64,000 nucleotides of DNA from Caenimonas koreensis DSM 17982 (GCF_009646335.1 NZ_WJBU01000018.1:1-64000); one strand, 5' to 3'. Counted from the first letter of the stretch, positions 1 through 5,551 are shown. The notes: generated by a model from the letters alone, not told the origin. A program made the numbers and translations.

Positions 1-146
1 GCCTGCTCAAAACACTCAGCGAGCTACGAAAACGCAAGCCGAAAAAGATGCGGCATAACGTAAAAATGACCGGTGCACGGCAACTGCGGCGAGCGCCGCA
101 GCCTGCTGCTGTGCATCCGTGTCGATTGACATGTTAAGCCGCAACT

Positions 147-413
147 TCACCGCAGTTTGTCCACCAAATAGACGAGCGCCCAGCTTCCCAAAGCGCCGAC
201 AAGGCCGCTCCACAGTGCGGTGACCCGAAGGTGATCACGCTCTTTCGGCAAAAGACTTTTATCGAATATCCACCAAGCGTTGAGTACCCGCGCCTGCTGC
301 GACCAAGAGTCAATAGCTCTCACCTCTTGATACGCCCAGAACCACATGACAACGTGTGTGGTGAGCGCCACCAACGTCACGACGGCAAGGGTCAGGCAAA
401 GAAACGTGAGCAT
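147..413 (-). CDS. hypothetical small membrane protein (two hydrophobic segments)
   Basis: 88-aa ORF with two hydrophobic stretches (LTFLCLTLAVVTLVALTT; LWSGLVGALGSWALVYLV) in the low-GC 5' region. No clear RBS. Confidence 0.25.
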   Translation of the reverse strand: MLTFLCLTLAVVTLVALTTHVVMWFWAYQEVRAIDSWSQQARVLNAWWIFDKSLLPKERDHLRVTALWSGLVGALGSWALVYLVDKLR

Positions 414-627
414 TTTTGCGGTTTAACGTAATGTAGTCAGCAAACCCGCCGGATAAAAGTGCGACGCACTTCCCGGCCGACGCGCCATTTCAAACGCAAG
501 TCTTTGATTCACAACCCGTCTTTGCATGCCTGCGCCCCTGTTGCCTTCAACCCAGAAACTTTTATCACGCAGACTACTGCATGCTGGATAAAAGCGCCAA
601 ATATTCGGAGCGTCTGCACGATAAAAG
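256..627. repeat. cluster of five GATAAAAG octamers: reverse at 256-264 and 559-566, forward at 452-459, 587-594 and 620-627. Copies 559-566 and 587-594 form a palindrome CTTTTATC-N20-GATAAAAG.
   Basis: Read directly in the low-GC segment upstream of the Cro-like regulator gene. The arrangement looks like operator sites. Confidence 0.5.
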
Positions 628-1039
628 TGTGGCGCCCCTCGCTGCTACAGGTTTATCAGGCGCAGTTCCGTACAAAGGCGGCGACAAAGGCCGCATACGG
701 CTCAGCATCGCTGCCTCTTCAATCCCTGAAAGAAATGATCGCGATCGGAGCCGTCGTAGTCGCCGCTGAGCATGCAACACCGCTTGAAACCGAAGACTGG
801 AGCCGCAGGGGCACGGGTCGTTGCGGCCAAGTTTCTCGACCAGTTCCTTGCGCCCGTTGACAACGCGGTCGCCGCGCTTGACTTGTGTTTCCGACGGGAA
901 ACCTTTTCGACGCTTGCTCGTGACCTCAAAACCAGTGTTGGTCGAGGAGGCTCTTGGTTGTACGCATGGCACACCTCCGAAAAAAAATAGACCCCGACGA
1001 CCGGGGCCGGCGGATTGTAGGCGCACACGTGCGATGCAC

Positions 1040-1309
1040 CTACCGCTTGCTTTCATCCCGCATCACTCTCATCAATTCGCGCTTCTTCCCGGCGTTTGCC
1101 GCGCGCCACGCAGACCGCGCCAGTTCCACAAACCGCTCTTCGGCCGCGTTCGCTATTGGCACCGCCTGTTCTGTGTCCAGCCAGCCCGCAGGCTTTTTGG
1201 TGTGGCTCTCAATCTGCCGCGCGAGCTTGTCTGAAATCGGTCTGCTCGCTTTGACTTGACTCCACATGCTCGGCGAAATCTCCAATGCAGCAGCAAAGGC
1301 CTGCTCCAT
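1040..1309 (-). CDS. small HTH (Cro/XRE-like) DNA-binding regulator, phage-type
   Basis: Helix-turn-helix-like segment [31 protein letters not shown] at 1309 is preceded by AAAGGA; the track's longer form starts at TTG 1423 (127 aa). The gene is divergent from the 1451-1479 promoter. Confidence 0.45.
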
Positions 1310-1450
1310 TCCTTTGGCCGGCTCGCCTGCTGCGAGCTGCTGCGCCGCGAACTCCTGAAACAGGGCCAGCGCGTTCTGTCGTCTTGTGACTGTGATGTTG
1401 GGCAACTTGTGACTCAGGTGCAACGTGAAACAACTTGATTGTCGCAGCGC

Positions 1451-1479
1451 TTGACAGTTTAGTTAAGAGTCTTTACAGT
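1451..1479 (+). promoter_or_regulatory. sigma70-like promoter TTGACA-N17-TACAGT firing rightward
   Basis: Perfect -35 hexamer at 1451-1456, 17-nt spacer, TACAGT at 1474-1479. Sits in the divergent intergenic region before the 1541 ORF and the tRNA array. Confidence 0.5.
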
Positions 1480-1540
1480 CCGCATCCAACGTGCTTCTGG
1501 CACTTCATCGCCATCAACTGAGTTTTATCTAGGACACATC

Positions 1541-3188: not shown

Positions 3189-3211
3189 ATTTCTACAATC
3201 AAGGAGGTTCT

Positions 3212-4414
3212 ATGGAACTCATGAAGAACGTCCAGGCATGGACTGAAGGCGTCGAAATCGAATGGGACGCCATGCAACAGATCCGCAATATCGCGGGCCT
3301 GCCTATCGTTGCGGGGCACATCGCTGTGATGCCCGACGTGCACCTCGGCAAGGGCGCCACTGTCGGAACCGTGGTGCCAACGCGTGGCGCGATCATCCCT
3401 GCTGCTGTGGGTGTCGATATCGGCTGCGGCATGGCCGCGCTGCGCACGCAGCTGAAGGCGGCGCAACTGCCCGAGAGCCTGATGCAAATCCGGTCGGCGA
3501 TCGAAGCAGCCGTGCCTGTCGGCTTCGACGTGCACGACGTCGAGCTCAACCCAACGCACCAAGGGCCGCATGGTCGCGACCTGCGCACCAAGATGCAGGC
3601 GCTGTATGCGCGCTTCGAGACGCTCGCGATTCTGACGACGCTGCGCCGCGTGGATGCCCGCCGTATCTGGCGCCAGCTCGGCACCCTCGGCGGTGGCAAT
3701 CACTTCATCGAACTGTGTCTCGACGAGGCCGGCGACGTGTGGGTGATGCTGCACTCCGGCTCGCGCAACATCGGCAAGACGATTGGTGAAGCGGCGATCG
3801 GCATGGCGCGGGAAGCTGCGCATCACGCTGGTATTGGGTTGCCTGACAAGGATCTCGCGTGGCTGAACGAAGGCACCGCCGAGTTCAACCAGTACGTCGA
3901 GGCGTTGCAGTGGGCGCAAGACTACGCAGCGCTGAACCGCGAGCTGATGCTGTTTCGGGTGCTGAACGCGTTGCGTGCAACGCTTGCGCATCCGATCAAG
4001 GTCACCACCGAAGTCGTGAATTGCCATCACAACTATGCAACGATCGAAGAGCACTTCGGCTCGAAGGTGTGGATTACGCGCAAGGGCGCGGTGAGCGCGC
4101 GCGAGGGCCAGCTCGGGATCATCCCGGGCTCCATGGGCACGCGCAGCTACATCGTGCGTGGCCGCGGCAATCCGCTCTCGTACTGCTCTTGCAGCCACGG
4201 TGCCGGACGACGCATGTCGCGCGGCGCCGCCAAGCGTCACTTCAACCTCGATGCGCTGGCCGCGCAAACGGCGGGTGTCGAGTGCCGCAAGGACGCAGGC
4301 GTGCTGGACGAGATTCCAGGCGCCTACAAGGACATCGACGCCGTGATGGCCGCCCAGGCCGATCTCGTCGAGGTCGTTCACACCCTCAAACAGGTGCTGT
4401 GCGTGAAGGGCTGA
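3212..4414 (+). CDS. rtcB: RNA-splicing ligase RtcB (3'-phosphate/5'-hydroxy RNA ligase)
   Basis: 400 aa. Hallmark segments MPDVHLGKGATVGTVVPTRGAIIPAAVGVDIGCGM and the C-terminal GSMGTRSY, SCSHGAGR matching RtcB active-site regions. AAGGAGG RBS 7 nt upstream of the ATG. Directly follows the tRNA array. Confidence 0.9.
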   Translation: MELMKNVQAWTEGVEIEWDAMQQIRNIAGLPIVAGHIAVMPDVHLGKGATVGTVVPTRGAIIPAAVGVDIGCGMAALRTQLKAAQLPESLMQIRSAIEAAVPVGFDVHDVELNPTHQGPHGRDLRTKMQALYARFETLAILTTLRRVDARRIWRQLGTLGGGNHFIELCLDEAGDVWVMLHSGSRNIGKTIGEAAIGMAREAAHHAGIGLPDKDLAWLNEGTAEFNQYVEALQWAQDYAALNRELMLFRVLNALRATLAHPIKVTTEVVNCHHNYATIEEHFGSKVWITRKGAVSAREGQLGIIPGSMGTRSYIVRGRGNPLSYCSCSHGAGRRMSRGAAKRHFNLDALAAQTAGVECRKDAGVLDEIPGAYKDIDAVMAAQADLVEVVHTLKQVLCVKG

Positions 4415-4477
4415 CCCGGAGAGTGAACCGGTGTCGGCACCTCTCGCCGCACCGGCACCCATCTACTGGAGAAACCC

Positions 4478-5041
4478 ATGAAATCAACTGTCCTGCAACT
4501 GGACATCCAGGGCACTCCGCAAGCCTGGATCTCGCTCGAGCAGGCAGCGCTGCACTACGCTGCCGATTCGGTGGCGTGGGCTGACGGCGCCGGCCCGCTC
4601 GCCGTGCTGCGTGGCGGCTGGAACAGCGTGACAGGTCTGCAATCGACTCTGTCGGTGCACCCGATCGTCGCTGTGCGCGGCCATTCACGTGTCAACCTGT
4701 TCGACGTACCGGTGTGCGTCACCAAGGGCAAACTGCTGCGCCGCGACCGGCTCACCTGCGCGTACTGCGGCGAGGTTCATGACGAGCGCGTGCTGCAGGT
4801 CGAGCACATCGTGCCTGAGTCCCGCGGCGGTCCTTACTCGTGGATGAACCTCGTGACGGCATGTGCCGCGTGCAATGCGCGCAAGGCCGACCGCACACCC
4901 GAGGAAGCAGGCATGCCGCTGTTGTACCTGCCGTACGTGCCGAACCGGTTCGAAGGCTTCCTGCTGGAAGGCCGTCGCATCCGCGCCGATGTGCACGAGT
5001 GGCTGGCCGCACGGTTGCCCAAACATTCGCGACTGCAGTGA
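4478..5041 (+). CDS. HNH endonuclease-domain protein with an uncharacterised ~90-aa N-terminal domain
   Basis: HNH motif CAYCGEV...VLQVEHIVPESRGG...NLVTACAACNARK (Cys pairs with His/Asn catalytic core). GGAG RBS. 64 bp after rtcB on the same strand. Confidence 0.8.
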   Translation: MKSTVLQLDIQGTPQAWISLEQAALHYAADSVAWADGAGPLAVLRGGWNSVTGLQSTLSVHPIVAVRGHSRVNLFDVPVCVTKGKLLRRDRLTCAYCGEVHDERVLQVEHIVPESRGGPYSWMNLVTACAACNARKADRTPEEAGMPLLYLPYVPNRFEGFLLEGRRIRADVHEWLAARLPKHSRLQ

Positions 5042-5190
5042 GCTTGCCGCTCGCGGCGTCGCGTCCCAGTTCTTTCGTGGAAAAGCAATGCGCTTACAGG
5101 CTGGGGCTCCCAAACCCCGCCGGCGTGCGGCGCCCGGCCCTCAAGCCGTCGGCGCCGAACGTGCCGCCATTGCCGGAACCGAAGGAAGCT

Positions 5191-5238
5191 AGCGATGACT
5201 TGGTGTGTCCCCGGGTTCGATTCCCGGCATCGCTGCCA
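5191..5238 (+). ncRNA. 48-nt tRNA-like minihelix (acceptor stem plus T arm, no D or anticodon arm), or the 3' remnant of a tRNA gene
   Basis: AGCGATG pairs perfectly with CATCGCT; T arm CCGGG-TTCGATT-CCCGG; discriminator G plus CCA encoded. Only 13 nt separate the 5' acceptor strand from the T arm. Confidence 0.4.
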
Positions 5239-5312
5239 CGTTGGATAGCTCAGTGGTAGAGCAACGAACTCATAACTCGTCTGTCACAGGTTCGACTCCT
5301 GTACCAACACCA
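5239..5312 (+). tRNA. tRNA-Met-like (anticodon CAU), degenerate
   Basis: D arm GCTC-AGTGGTA-GAGC, anticodon loop CTCATAA, T arm ACAGG-TTCGACT-CCTGT, ACCA end. The acceptor stem has mismatches at 6-67 and 7-66, the anticodon stem has an unpaired closing pair, and the gene is 1-2 nt shorter than standard. Confidence 0.45.
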
Positions 5313-5551
5313 TAGAACGGTCGAAAGACCACCCCGCCGAACGCATCAATTGCTGTCCGCCATGCGGCGAGCAAACGATGTCAGCGGCCCGGTCCTGTGT
5401 CTGTGCCAAGCGGGGATTCGCGTCCACGGCCAGCCAGCCCCTTGAATGGCGGCGGCGCACCGTGGCACCCGGTCCCTGGCAGTGCAGGCCCGCCGTGCCC
5501 CTGTAACGGCAACCCCATCTTTTCAACACACGCCCCTCAAAGGAGAACAAC

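Follow-up and report, generated by a model that had tools for sequence, protein, structure and literature searches.

The first 6,694 nucleotides of a 64,000-nt stretch of the Caenimonas koreensis DSM 17982 genome (GCF_009646335.1, NZ_WJBU01000018.1:1-64000; hereafter the window, in whose coordinates all positions are given) hold a dense transfer RNA (tRNA) array followed by genes for the RNA ligase RtcB, an HNH nuclease and an SPFH/Band-7 protein, and preceded by a CI-like repressor gene and a long leader. This island is one copy of a conserved module of the Burkholderiales, and it probably serves as an inducible reserve of tRNAs and RNA repair for a damaged translation apparatus. The module is a combination of known kinds of system, the L-array and Rtc-type RNA repair, rather than a new category. 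New here are three covarying RNAs without a match in Rfam, the architecture of the leader and its boxA, and a small gene for a SEC-C zinc-finger protein, in which as many as three apparent +1 shift sites are conserved, two of them in the window.

Comparisons are anchored on the HNH gene, whose family counts 1417 protein clusters at E<=1e-10 and at least 471 confirmed matches in a one-genome-per-species collection. The best 80 of these loci (numbered L005-L084), essentially all Burkholderiales by record title, form the set to which counts out of 80 refer; repressor and terminator positions were also counted on the 65 loci with sufficient upstream DNA.

An accessory island built around a tRNA array

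The main genes, with tRNA calls from ARAGORN and Rfam and protein assignments from Pfam and PHROG, are as follows:

1911-1986, plus strand: tRNA1, a Gly-type body with a GUC anticodon ('Asp-like'; ARAGORN, Rfam)
2136-2294, plus strand: tRNA-Thr(TGT) and tRNA-Glu(TTC) (ARAGORN, Rfam)
2397-3188, plus strand: nine tRNAs, Asp, Phe, Arg-ACG, Ile-GAT, Pro-TGG, His, Leu-CAA, Leu-CAG and Gln-TTG (ARAGORN, Rfam)
3212-4414, plus strand: rtcB, RNA 3'-phosphate/5'-OH ligase, 23 nt after tRNA-Gln (Pfam RtcB, 6.9e-128)
4478-5041, plus strand: HNH nuclease, 187 aa (Pfam HNH_5/HNH/HNH_4)
5552-6694, plus strand: SPFH/Band-7 protein, right end of the island (Pfam Band_7, 6.4e-29)

The 12 tRNA genes, non-repetitive and all on the plus strand, occupy positions 1911-3188 (1278 bp) in the order Asp-like GTC, Thr-TGT, Glu-TTC, Asp-GTC, Phe-GAA, Arg-ACG, Ile-GAT, Pro-TGG, His-GTG, Leu-CAA, Leu-CAG, Gln-TTG. 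Each has an encoded CCA at its 3' end (12/12), and the intergenic gaps measure 5-22 nt with two exceptions, of 149 and 102 nt. All 13 ARAGORN calls, namely the array and an element at 5239-5311, score 48-66 bits against the Rfam tRNA model, and ARAGORN detected no other tRNA gene in the 64-kb window. The density of 9.4 tRNAs per kb (12 in 1.28 kb) is above the 2 per kb of Tran et al. 2016, and the size, 12 genes plus one tRNA-like gene, is below the at least 20 genes that they ask of a tRNA array unit. A preliminary description of this DNA had reported twelve closely packed tRNAs with encoded CCA in an island that also carries rtcB and an HNH gene, which ARAGORN, Rfam and Pfam bear out. It had also taken the first gene for a divergent second copy of tRNA-Asp: the GTC anticodon is there, but the gene is the positional orthologue of the tRNA-Gly(GCC) that opens related arrays, and its acceptor stem is of Gly type (G1:C72, C2:G71, G3:C70, U73). 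Two other copies of tRNA1, in L013 (7571) and L028 (6366), have an insertion of about 11 nt inside the anticodon loop, and many others show C33 in place of the near-universal U33 (loop ACGCCAU).

At its right end the island adjoins ACS. In a metagenomic relative whose ACS is 77% identical, and which shares the gene order parE-acetyltransferase-x-GGDEF-parC-ACS, yjgF directly follows ACS, with no SPFH, HNH or tRNA gene, thus representing an empty site; Ramlibacter tataouinensis likewise has ACS-yjgF. Neither ParC nor an orthologous ACS lies near the module in any of the 80 related loci, and an ACS-like gene near Variovorax modules was rejected as a shared flank, being a paralogue only 29% identical. 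In C. sedimenti, HNH-RtcB is found at a different chromosomal site, while the HNH protein of the window is 100% identical to the Caenimonas koreensis DSM 17982 protein. Since the site is empty in a syntenic relative, the flank is not common to the 80 loci and the site differs in C. sedimenti, the island is an insertion that spans positions 1-6694, the SPFH gene included, with its left end beyond the window. The boundary once drawn at 5320, with SPFH as native flank, has therefore to be moved, as SPFH belongs to the module (24/80 loci) and forms its right-hand end against ACS; a check for neighbours that join the unit at 1-147 to SPFH would have failed. Together with homologues on megaplasmids, the empty site and the differing C. 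sedimenti site support the earlier view of an accessory and horizontally moving array, distinct from a housekeeping cluster. No integrase or structural phage gene was found in the island part of the window.

The island had also been described as low in GC, which is true of positions 1-1900 (56.9%, against 64.4 +/- 2.2% in the remainder of the window) but not of the array (63.1%), rtcB (64.2%), HNH (65.2%) and SPFH (63.9%), all genome-typical. Low GC is thus a property of the regulatory flank alone. The GC3 of the island genes (0.78-0.83) equals that of ACS/parC.

Distribution and descent of the module

The typical order comprises, in the 5' part, a divergent CI-like repressor gene, a promoter, a leader open reading frame (ORF) of 50-70 aa, a terminator, an rrn-type boxA and a hairpin, and in the 3' part a colinear tRNA array, the HNH gene, a tRNA-like RNA, and genes for Band-7 and RtcB (or RtcR-Rsr-YrlA-RtcBA). 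Array size varies from 0 to 27 genes across the 80 loci, with a median of 5. The repressor, the tRNAs and HNH form the recurrent core. RtcB is present in 35/80 loci and SPFH, after HNH, in 24/80; other than these and the repressor, no protein family recurs around HNH among the 80 loci. SPFH is located between HNH and a downstream RtcB in at least 15 relatives, while in the window HNH separates SPFH from rtcB. Some loci have RtcR(-)-Rsr-YrlA-RtcB-RtcA in place of SPFH; relatives of this type, such as L008 with a true YrlA (79.4 bits), carry both Rsr (Ro60/TROVE) and YrlA, while in the window the island has no TROVE ORF and its best YrlA match lies below threshold.

Arrays are colinear subsets of one template, which starts with Gly-GCC, Thr, Glu, (sp2, a structured RNA described below), Ala, Asp, Phe, Arg-ACG, ..., and continues with Asn, Ile, Pro, His, Lys, Leu-CAG, Met, (about 300 nt), ..., Gln, Val, Arg-CCG, HNH, which points to a common ancestor and descent by deletion. 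The window array is one such subset, the order of its nine tRNAs at 2397-3188 being colinear with the template. The tRNAs kept most often are His-GTG (56/80 loci), Arg-ACG (52), Glu-TTC (41) and Asp-GTC (39). DNA searches recovered homologous HNH-ended arrays on megaplasmids, in Methylibium petroleiphilum PM1 (27 tRNAs, with HD and AlkB genes), Variovorax RA8 (23 tRNAs and an RNA ligase gene), Polaromonas P1-6 (19 tRNAs) and V. paradoxus (10 tRNAs), and an array on a Burkholderia sp. M701 megaplasmid has 37 tRNAs. The genes of the module are under purifying selection, with dN/dS values of 0.22 for HNH (81 intact copies), 0.22 for SPFH, 0.20 for RtcB and 0.27 for the repressor.

Nine Variovorax chromosomes (L020, L023, L026, L027, L032, L034, L038, L039, L042) have a minimal module at a fixed site, consisting of repressor, leader, sp2, tRNA-Arg(ACG), a spacer of about 270 nt, tRNA-His(GTG) and HNH, RtcB and SPFH both being absent within 10 kb. 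Collimonas has the arrangement rtcR-rsr-rtcB-rtcA-tRNA-His-HNH. Two genomes of Collimonas pratensis (L127 and L128) have an identical HNH gene and right flank, and to the left one strain has rtcR-rsr-rtcB-rtcA-tRNA-His and the other unrelated metabolic genes, the breakpoint of the replacement lying directly upstream of HNH.

The RtcB and HNH proteins

The window RtcB is 74% identical to the in-array RtcB of L080, about 55% identical to the RtcBs encoded downstream of HNH elsewhere, and 58% identical to that of the Caulobacter phage phiCbK. The HNH protein is made of an N-terminal beta-rich domain, a Cys4 zinc HNH core (residues 82-152) and C-terminal helices. The core has the beta-beta-alpha-Me nuclease fold and is similar to the HNH domains of IscB and Cas9, to the small HNH nuclease 4h9d and to the restriction enzyme McrA, and both its catalytic motif and its Cys4 zinc site are intact; the N-terminal domain has no clear structural relative in a confidently predicted model (pLDDT 85). 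Distant homologues (36-53% identity) reside within tRNA arrays of IMG/VR phage contigs, and in the Nostoc all8564 region (pCC7120delta), beside the trn operon, the core is 47% identical over residues 81-155. A full-length homologue from the actinobacterium Tsukamurella was discarded as an array partner, as no tRNA genes neighbour it. HNH may be either a homing enzyme or a stress effector; that it is under purifying selection and always associated with RNA-repair genes speaks for more than a decaying parasite.

Across L005-L084 a short covarying hairpin (GGCC-GCGAAAGGA-GGCC, or CGCC...GGCG in Variovorax), some 20 nt before the start codon of HNH, contains its Shine-Dalgarno (SD) sequence, which suggests translational control. 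Many HNH proteins also have a His-rich N-terminus (MHPHHSH); the window HNH has neither the His-rich start nor the SD hairpin.

A leader with candidate attenuation and antitermination signals

The order of elements in the leader was derived from an alignment of five loci (A1), then from pattern searches across all loci. In the window it reads:

1040-1423, minus strand (divergent): CI-like repressor ('Rep'), 127 aa (PHROG 12107 'transcriptional repressor', 4e-9)
1451-1479, plus strand: sigma-70-type promoter TTGACA-17-TACAGT toward the array, position conserved in A1
1541-1729, plus strand: leader ORF, 62 aa, C-terminal motif ..HPG.., stop 28 nt before the terminator
1754-1798 (also given as 1754-1788), plus strand: strong intrinsic terminator, 15-bp stem and T-run, between leader ORF and array, invariant in A1
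1847-1859, plus strand: rrn-type boxA-like element TGTTCATTAACAA, 11/13 positions matching TGCTCTTTAACAA
1866-1903, plus strand: long hairpin with the conserved loop UACUGG, directly 5' of tRNA1, in 27 loci

A homologue of the repressor is encoded divergently upstream in 58/80 loci, or 55 of the 65 with enough upstream DNA. The Cro-like regulator of the preliminary description is this protein, whereas the operator-like repeats reported with it are two-copy 9-10-mers, set aside as too weak to interpret.

Around 50 loci have a leader ORF of about 50-70 codons whose frame is kept and whose stop lies some 29-30 nt before the terminator; it starts with GTG, 7-8 nt after a GGA-type SD, and encodes a conserved start (V-K..), a variable middle and the C-terminal motif ..ED..HPGEGSA. 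The terminator is nearly invariant (GGCCCGG..CCGGGCCTTTTT) and found upstream of HNH in 44/65 loci. An invariant CCGGG, spanning the Pro-Gly codons of the leader, has its complement, CCCGG, within the terminator's 5' arm. When a covarying antiterminator was sought with the terminator 3' arm left out, this invariant 5-bp CCGGG:CCCGG helix was the sole consensus pairing. An attenuator specific for an amino acid, with leader codons matching the array, was dropped as a model, given that Variovorax leaders have no His codon though their arrays keep tRNA-His.

Further downstream, the window boxA matches 11/13 positions of the consensus UGCUCUUUAACAA, for which 0.27 matches are expected by chance. 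The exact 11-mer CTCTTTAACAA occurs once per locus, at the homologous place, in 18 loci, and the exact box form TGCTCTTTAACAA is that of the E. coli rrn boxA (PMC2724277). In the adjacent hairpin, whose loop reads (U/A)ACUGG, compensatory stem changes are visible by eye across the 27 loci. Taken together, these features may be read as a translation-coupled attenuator, followed by Nus-type antitermination of the untranslated array.

Structured RNAs within and after the array

Four further RNA elements lie between the genes, three of them without an Rfam family:

1984-2130, plus strand: four-way-junction RNA of about 145 nt closed by CCAUUUCGG/CCGAAAUGG, in 13 loci
2332-2374, plus strand: sp2, a double hairpin with GGCCGC/GCGGC and CCGG/CCGG stems and 9-nt loops, between tRNA-Glu and tRNA-Asp
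5075-5238, plus strand: structured RNA of about 165 nt between HNH and SPFH, with a 3' tRNA-like domain at 5191-5238
5239-5311, plus strand: tRNA-like RNA upstream of Band-7, called Met-CAT, candidate b7a-tRNA (Rfam tRNA, 50.2 bits)

In the 145-nt RNA, for which an Rfam search gave no match, 17 of 41 pairs show compensatory changes across the 13 loci. It overlaps the CCA end of tRNA1, and its retention in L025 and L065, where tRNA1 is deleted, marks it as an independent element. One copy of sp2 per locus is found in 53/80 genome loci, and in three plasmids as well; 98.3% of its positions are paired and 5/9 pairs are compensatory, a level that 0/500 shuffles reach. The loops of sp2 are near-invariant (AAnGAUnGG and AACyCGUnA), it is the first element after the leader in minimal Variovorax modules, and it was not found among the 2.9 million contigs of IMG/VR.

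The 165-nt RNA (34 pairs, 21 compensatory, 21 loci) ends 0-3 nt before the tRNA-like gene associated with Band-7, and its 3' domain (5191-5238) combines an acceptor stem of 7 bp with a T-arm and a final GCCA. Both downstream tRNA-like elements noticed previously, at 5191-5238 and 5239-5311, are thus real. A YrlA identity for 5180-5289 was rejected, the score being 25.8 bits against an Rfam gathering threshold of 69; this weak match arises from the junction of T-arm, acceptor and D-arm between the 165-nt RNA and the tRNA-like gene. Homologues of the element at 5239-5311 have a body 82-90% conserved over 20-odd loci, a varying anticodon and a short acceptor stem, a sequence pattern that fits the 'band-7-associated tRNA' of Burroughs and Aravind, as cited in bioRxiv 10.1101/312249.

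A SEC-C zinc-finger gene with conserved candidate +1 shift sites

Left of the repressor gene, and on the same strand, lie:

981-1010, minus strand: terminator-like hairpin and T-run (8-bp stem, 6 GC pairs, T8), after the repressor and just upstream of the SEC-C gene
702-967, minus strand: small SEC-C gene needing two predicted +1 frameshifts (ATG 967-965, stop 704-702)

This gene overlaps an ORF (574-1056, minus strand) with a partial SEC-C motif, homologous to the 'spacer' of about 300 nt that follows tRNA-Met in arrays. Homologues are found inside arrays, on the array strand, in 25/80 loci, while the window copy, located in the left flank, is on the other strand. Every copy shows a strong SD followed by an ATG (GGAGG, 6 nt, then ATG in the window) and by about 11 codons ending in Phe, after which the conserved protein continues in the +1 frame. 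In the window the two shift sites are TTT TGA G (931-925) and TTT CAA G (789-783).

Site 1 reads TTT CGA G in nine copies, TTT CAC G in seven and TTT TGA G in two, including the window; site 2 reads TTT CAA G/A/T in 16 and TTT TAA G in one, and has GAGG 3 nt upstream in most copies, the codons of the second and third zinc cysteines being always separated by 25 nt. A third site (TTT TGA C in 12 copies, TTT CGA C in six) yields upon shifting a conserved tail, DGVNRDHYRR; L049 (9560-9900) has a three-site copy. Some homologues are in frame, at site 1 (L131), at site 2 (L030, L129, L130) or at site 3 (the window, L057, L131, L134, L137). The SEC-C motif is complete only after the shift: once site 2 is corrected, the Pfam match covers the whole model and its score rises from 23.6-27.2 to 35-36.5 bits, for the window copy from 23.6 to 35.2 bits. 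Such a mosaic of shifted and unshifted copies is the classical signature of programmed +1 frameshifting.

Programmed +1 frameshifting is known from prfB, where CUU UGA C is accompanied by an SD-like stimulator. The SEC-C sites resemble it, and the UCC UUU CGU shift site of influenza PA-X (PMC3498833), in having UUU (or CUU) in the P-site followed by a stop or a slowly decoded codon, and, as in other genes of this kind, some homologues are in frame. Unlike prfB and PA-X, up to three sites occur in a single gene of about 78 codons, inside a tRNA array, and the predicted product, whose shifts are read from the sequence alone, is a SEC-C zinc-finger protein; no literature linking SEC-C proteins with frameshifting was found. 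The 'hungry' codons of these sites are those of tRNA-Arg(ACG), tRNA-His and tRNA-Gln(UUG). Because tRNA-His and tRNA-Arg(ACG) are the most retained array tRNAs, and a Gln-TTG gene comes shortly after the SEC-C gene, this match suggests that the gene may act as a sensor of tRNA supply. Its sites are possibly clustered more densely than any programmed +1 frameshift sites known so far from a bacterial gene.

A reserve of tRNAs and RNA repair, and its alternatives

What are such arrays for? The purpose of long horizontally transferred tRNA arrays is an open question, the only system studied being that of Anabaena, whose co-regulated genes are scattered. There, the L-array stays silent until translation inhibitors induce it (PMC8421152), and the trn operon is repressed by TrcR along with rtcB, two HNH genes and a slipin/SPFH gene (PMC10272220). 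The gene set of the Burkholderiales module corresponds to this experimentally defined regulon, which reacts to translational stress, but is physically linked here.

In the preferred explanation, the CI-like repressor and the sigma-70 promoter would control a long untranslated operon, whose transcription would first cross the leader ORF and the strong terminator, acting as a translation-coupled attenuator. Ribosomes short of the Pro-Gly codons (CCGGG) would leave CCGGG free to pair with the 5' arm of the terminator, thus allowing read-through, and the rrn-like boxA and hairpin would then load Nus factors, so that RNA polymerase resists Rho over the untranslated array. The operon would supply 12 supernumerary tRNAs, the embedded structured RNAs, the RtcB ligase and the HNH nuclease, while the tRNA-like RNA pair and the Band-7 protein would form with RtcB the known RtcB/Band-7/b7a-tRNA repair system. 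The island would in this way replace or repair tRNAs or ribosomal RNA (rRNA) after damage by a ribotoxin, an anticodon nuclease, a phage or an antibiotic. As the module exists in hundreds of culturable Burkholderiales (Variovorax, Ramlibacter, Methylibium, Burkholderia), it opens the link between spare tRNAs and RNA repair to genetics, and it offers a candidate translation-coupled attenuator together with an rrn-like antitermination signal on a tRNA operon.

Several points weigh against this explanation. Just two tRNAs at the fixed Variovorax site argue that tRNA supply is not the sole function, and tRNA1, with its Gly-type body and Asp anticodon, may be non-functional or mis-decoding. In the leader, the proposed antiterminator consists of 5 invariant bp without covariation, so that covariation cannot confirm it, the ORF could encode a small protein instead, and the boxA of the window, with 2 mismatches, is not significant alone. 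The repressor is a CI-like helix-turn-helix (HTH) protein and TrcR a ribbon-helix-helix (RHH) protein, which makes the regulatory analogy functional, not homologous. Finally, the native GC and GC3 of the array, rtcB and HNH imply that acquisition was old or from a similar genome.

Tentatively, the island might go further and constitute a self-contained sensor-effector for tRNA supply with two independent translational sensors. The first would be the leader attenuator, opening the tRNA/RtcB/HNH operon upon ribosome stalling. The second would be the SEC-C protein, made only by a +1 shift at UUU-[CGA/CAC/CAA/UGA/UAA] when tRNA-Arg(ICG), tRNA-His, tRNA-Gln(UUG) or a release factor is limiting. The embedded RNAs, namely sp2, the 145-nt RNA and the tRNA-like pair, would join this response as additional cofactors or as decoys. 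If both the frameshift and the attenuator are true, cells would have a new way to measure the integrity of their tRNA pool.

The spread of the module raises a different possibility, somewhat doubtful, in which HNH acts as a homing endonuclease of the selfish kind known from T4 SegB and the T5 F-Tfl enzymes. It would cut near tRNA genes and take array, rtcB and other cargo along into new genomes, the whole persisting by drive and not by host benefit. Homing has been proposed for Nostoc all8564, by analogy with T4 SegB (PMC8421152), and the core motif shared with it suits such an enzyme, as do the canonical Cys4 beta-beta-alpha-Me fold, similar to that of IscB, Cas9 and McrA, and the distant homologues inside phage tRNA arrays. 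HNH is moreover the most constant element of the module, usually 55-60 nt after a tRNA gene, even after the Collimonas rtcA-tRNA-His, and between the two C. pratensis strains HNH and its right flank are common whereas everything to the left differs. Nevertheless, all 81 copies examined are intact, with the same dN/dS (0.22) as SPFH and nearly that of RtcB, identity remains at 70-86% across genera, and position is stable in more than 10 Variovorax species. HNH is linked consistently to RNA-repair genes rather than to arbitrary cargo, and is co-regulated with the array in Anabaena (PMC10272220); an HNH-less allele with an intact target site was not found, L127 and L128 both keeping HNH. Homing is in any case compatible with a tRNA and repair reserve, as it concerns the spread of the module and not the function of its cargo.

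It is improbable that the island is a prophage or phage remnant, whose tRNAs and RtcB would serve phage translation and counter-defence against anticodon nucleases. The repressor belongs to a PHROG repressor family, RtcB is close to that of the jumbo phage phiCbK, which groups Band-7, rtcB, HNH and HD genes, related HNH genes exist in phage arrays, and tRNA arrays are presented as a putative anti-defence system in mycobacteria (PMC12803027). Against a phage-borne origin, also implied by the preliminary description, no integrase, structural, lysis or replication gene is present in the island part or recurs among the 80 loci, only the repressor, RtcB and SPFH recurring around HNH. Three close IMG/VR matches begin exactly at HNH, and L085, the one examined, adjoins an unrelated prophage with integrase and anti-repressor genes; these contigs look like artefacts of prophage boundaries and were discarded as evidence. 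The phiCbK HNH is not homologous to that of the window, sp2 is absent from IMG/VR, and hundreds of species have the module on a chromosome or a megaplasmid.

Least probable of all is that Comamonadaceae inherited the array vertically, as a native tRNA operon lying next to rtcB by chance: GC and GC3 equal to the genome's, wide distribution in Burkholderiales, a fixed site in Variovorax and purifying selection would agree with it, but the site is empty in a syntenic relative and differs within the genus, the flank is unique among the 80 loci, copies reside on conjugative megaplasmids, the number of tRNA genes varies between 0 and 27, the anticodon of the first tRNA is altered, and a dedicated repressor, leader and terminator set the operon apart from housekeeping tRNA operons.

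Relation to known systems

The reserve proposed here shares with the cyanobacterial L-array its tandem, same-strand, non-periodic, presumably supernumerary and horizontally acquired tRNAs with an adjacent HNH of homologous core, and with the TrcR regulon its association with rtcB and SPFH/slipin and its control by a repressor. Unlike in cyanobacteria, all components are linked in one locus in the window, the array has only 12 genes with an inducibility presumed by analogy, and HNH lies at the 3' end of the array rather than upstream; the leader ORF, terminator, boxA, sp2 and 145-nt RNA have not been reported there.

RtcB/Band-7/b7a-tRNA systems have been published (Burroughs and Aravind 2016, as cited in bioRxiv 10.1101/312249), and the window agrees with that account in having a Band-7 gene preceded by a tRNA-like RNA, with RtcB near. 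It departs from it in that rtcB has been relocated to the tRNA array, ahead of HNH, the b7a-like tRNA is preceded by an additional RNA of about 165 nt with a tRNA-like 3' end, and array, repressor and HNH are joined on. The alternative to the Band-7 association is the RtcR-Rsr-YrlA-RtcBA operon (PMC7790460, PMC4201824), for which relatives swap the Band-7 set, in agreement with those publications; unlike that operon, the island part of the window has no RtcR, RtcA or Rsr.

The arrays of Methylibium petroleiphilum RPME01 and Variovorax plasmids, noted earlier (PMC4758250, PMC7313664), are true homologues, with repressors 46-51% and terminal HNH 64-70% identical, and with the same leader, boxA, tRNA1 and colinear tRNA order. 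They differ from the window in having 10-27 tRNAs and, in place of rtcB, genes for HD, AlkB or RNA-ligase proteins. The arrays, though not the architecture of the module, were recorded by Tran et al. 2016 (PMC4758250) and Ozturk et al. 2020 (PMC7313664). As for boxA, the exact TGCTCTTTAACAA of relatives, with its hairpin, opens a long untranslated operon as does the rrn boxA (the NusB/NusE site), whereas, unlike in rrn or lambda nut, the element precedes a tRNA array, the loop UACUGG resembles neither boxB nor boxC, and the window copy has two mismatches. The earlier statement that no such island is described thus needs dividing, since related cyanobacterial (HNH-linked arrays co-regulated with rtcB; PMC8421152, PMC10272220), Band-7 and plasmid systems are published, while no description of the conserved Burkholderiales module itself was found in the literature.

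Minor observations

A 13-kb stretch of phiCbK (L123, 64-77 kb), in which ARAGORN found no tRNA gene, clusters Band-7, rtcB, an unrelated HNH, rejected as a homologue of that of the window, and HD/SpoT-like and PTH2 peptidyl-tRNA hydrolase genes. At the left end of the window, an 88-aa protein with no Pfam or PHROG match and no homologue in the 80 related loci is encoded at 147-413 on the minus strand, which is also that of the SEC-C gene upstream of it, and is predicted to be a membrane protein.

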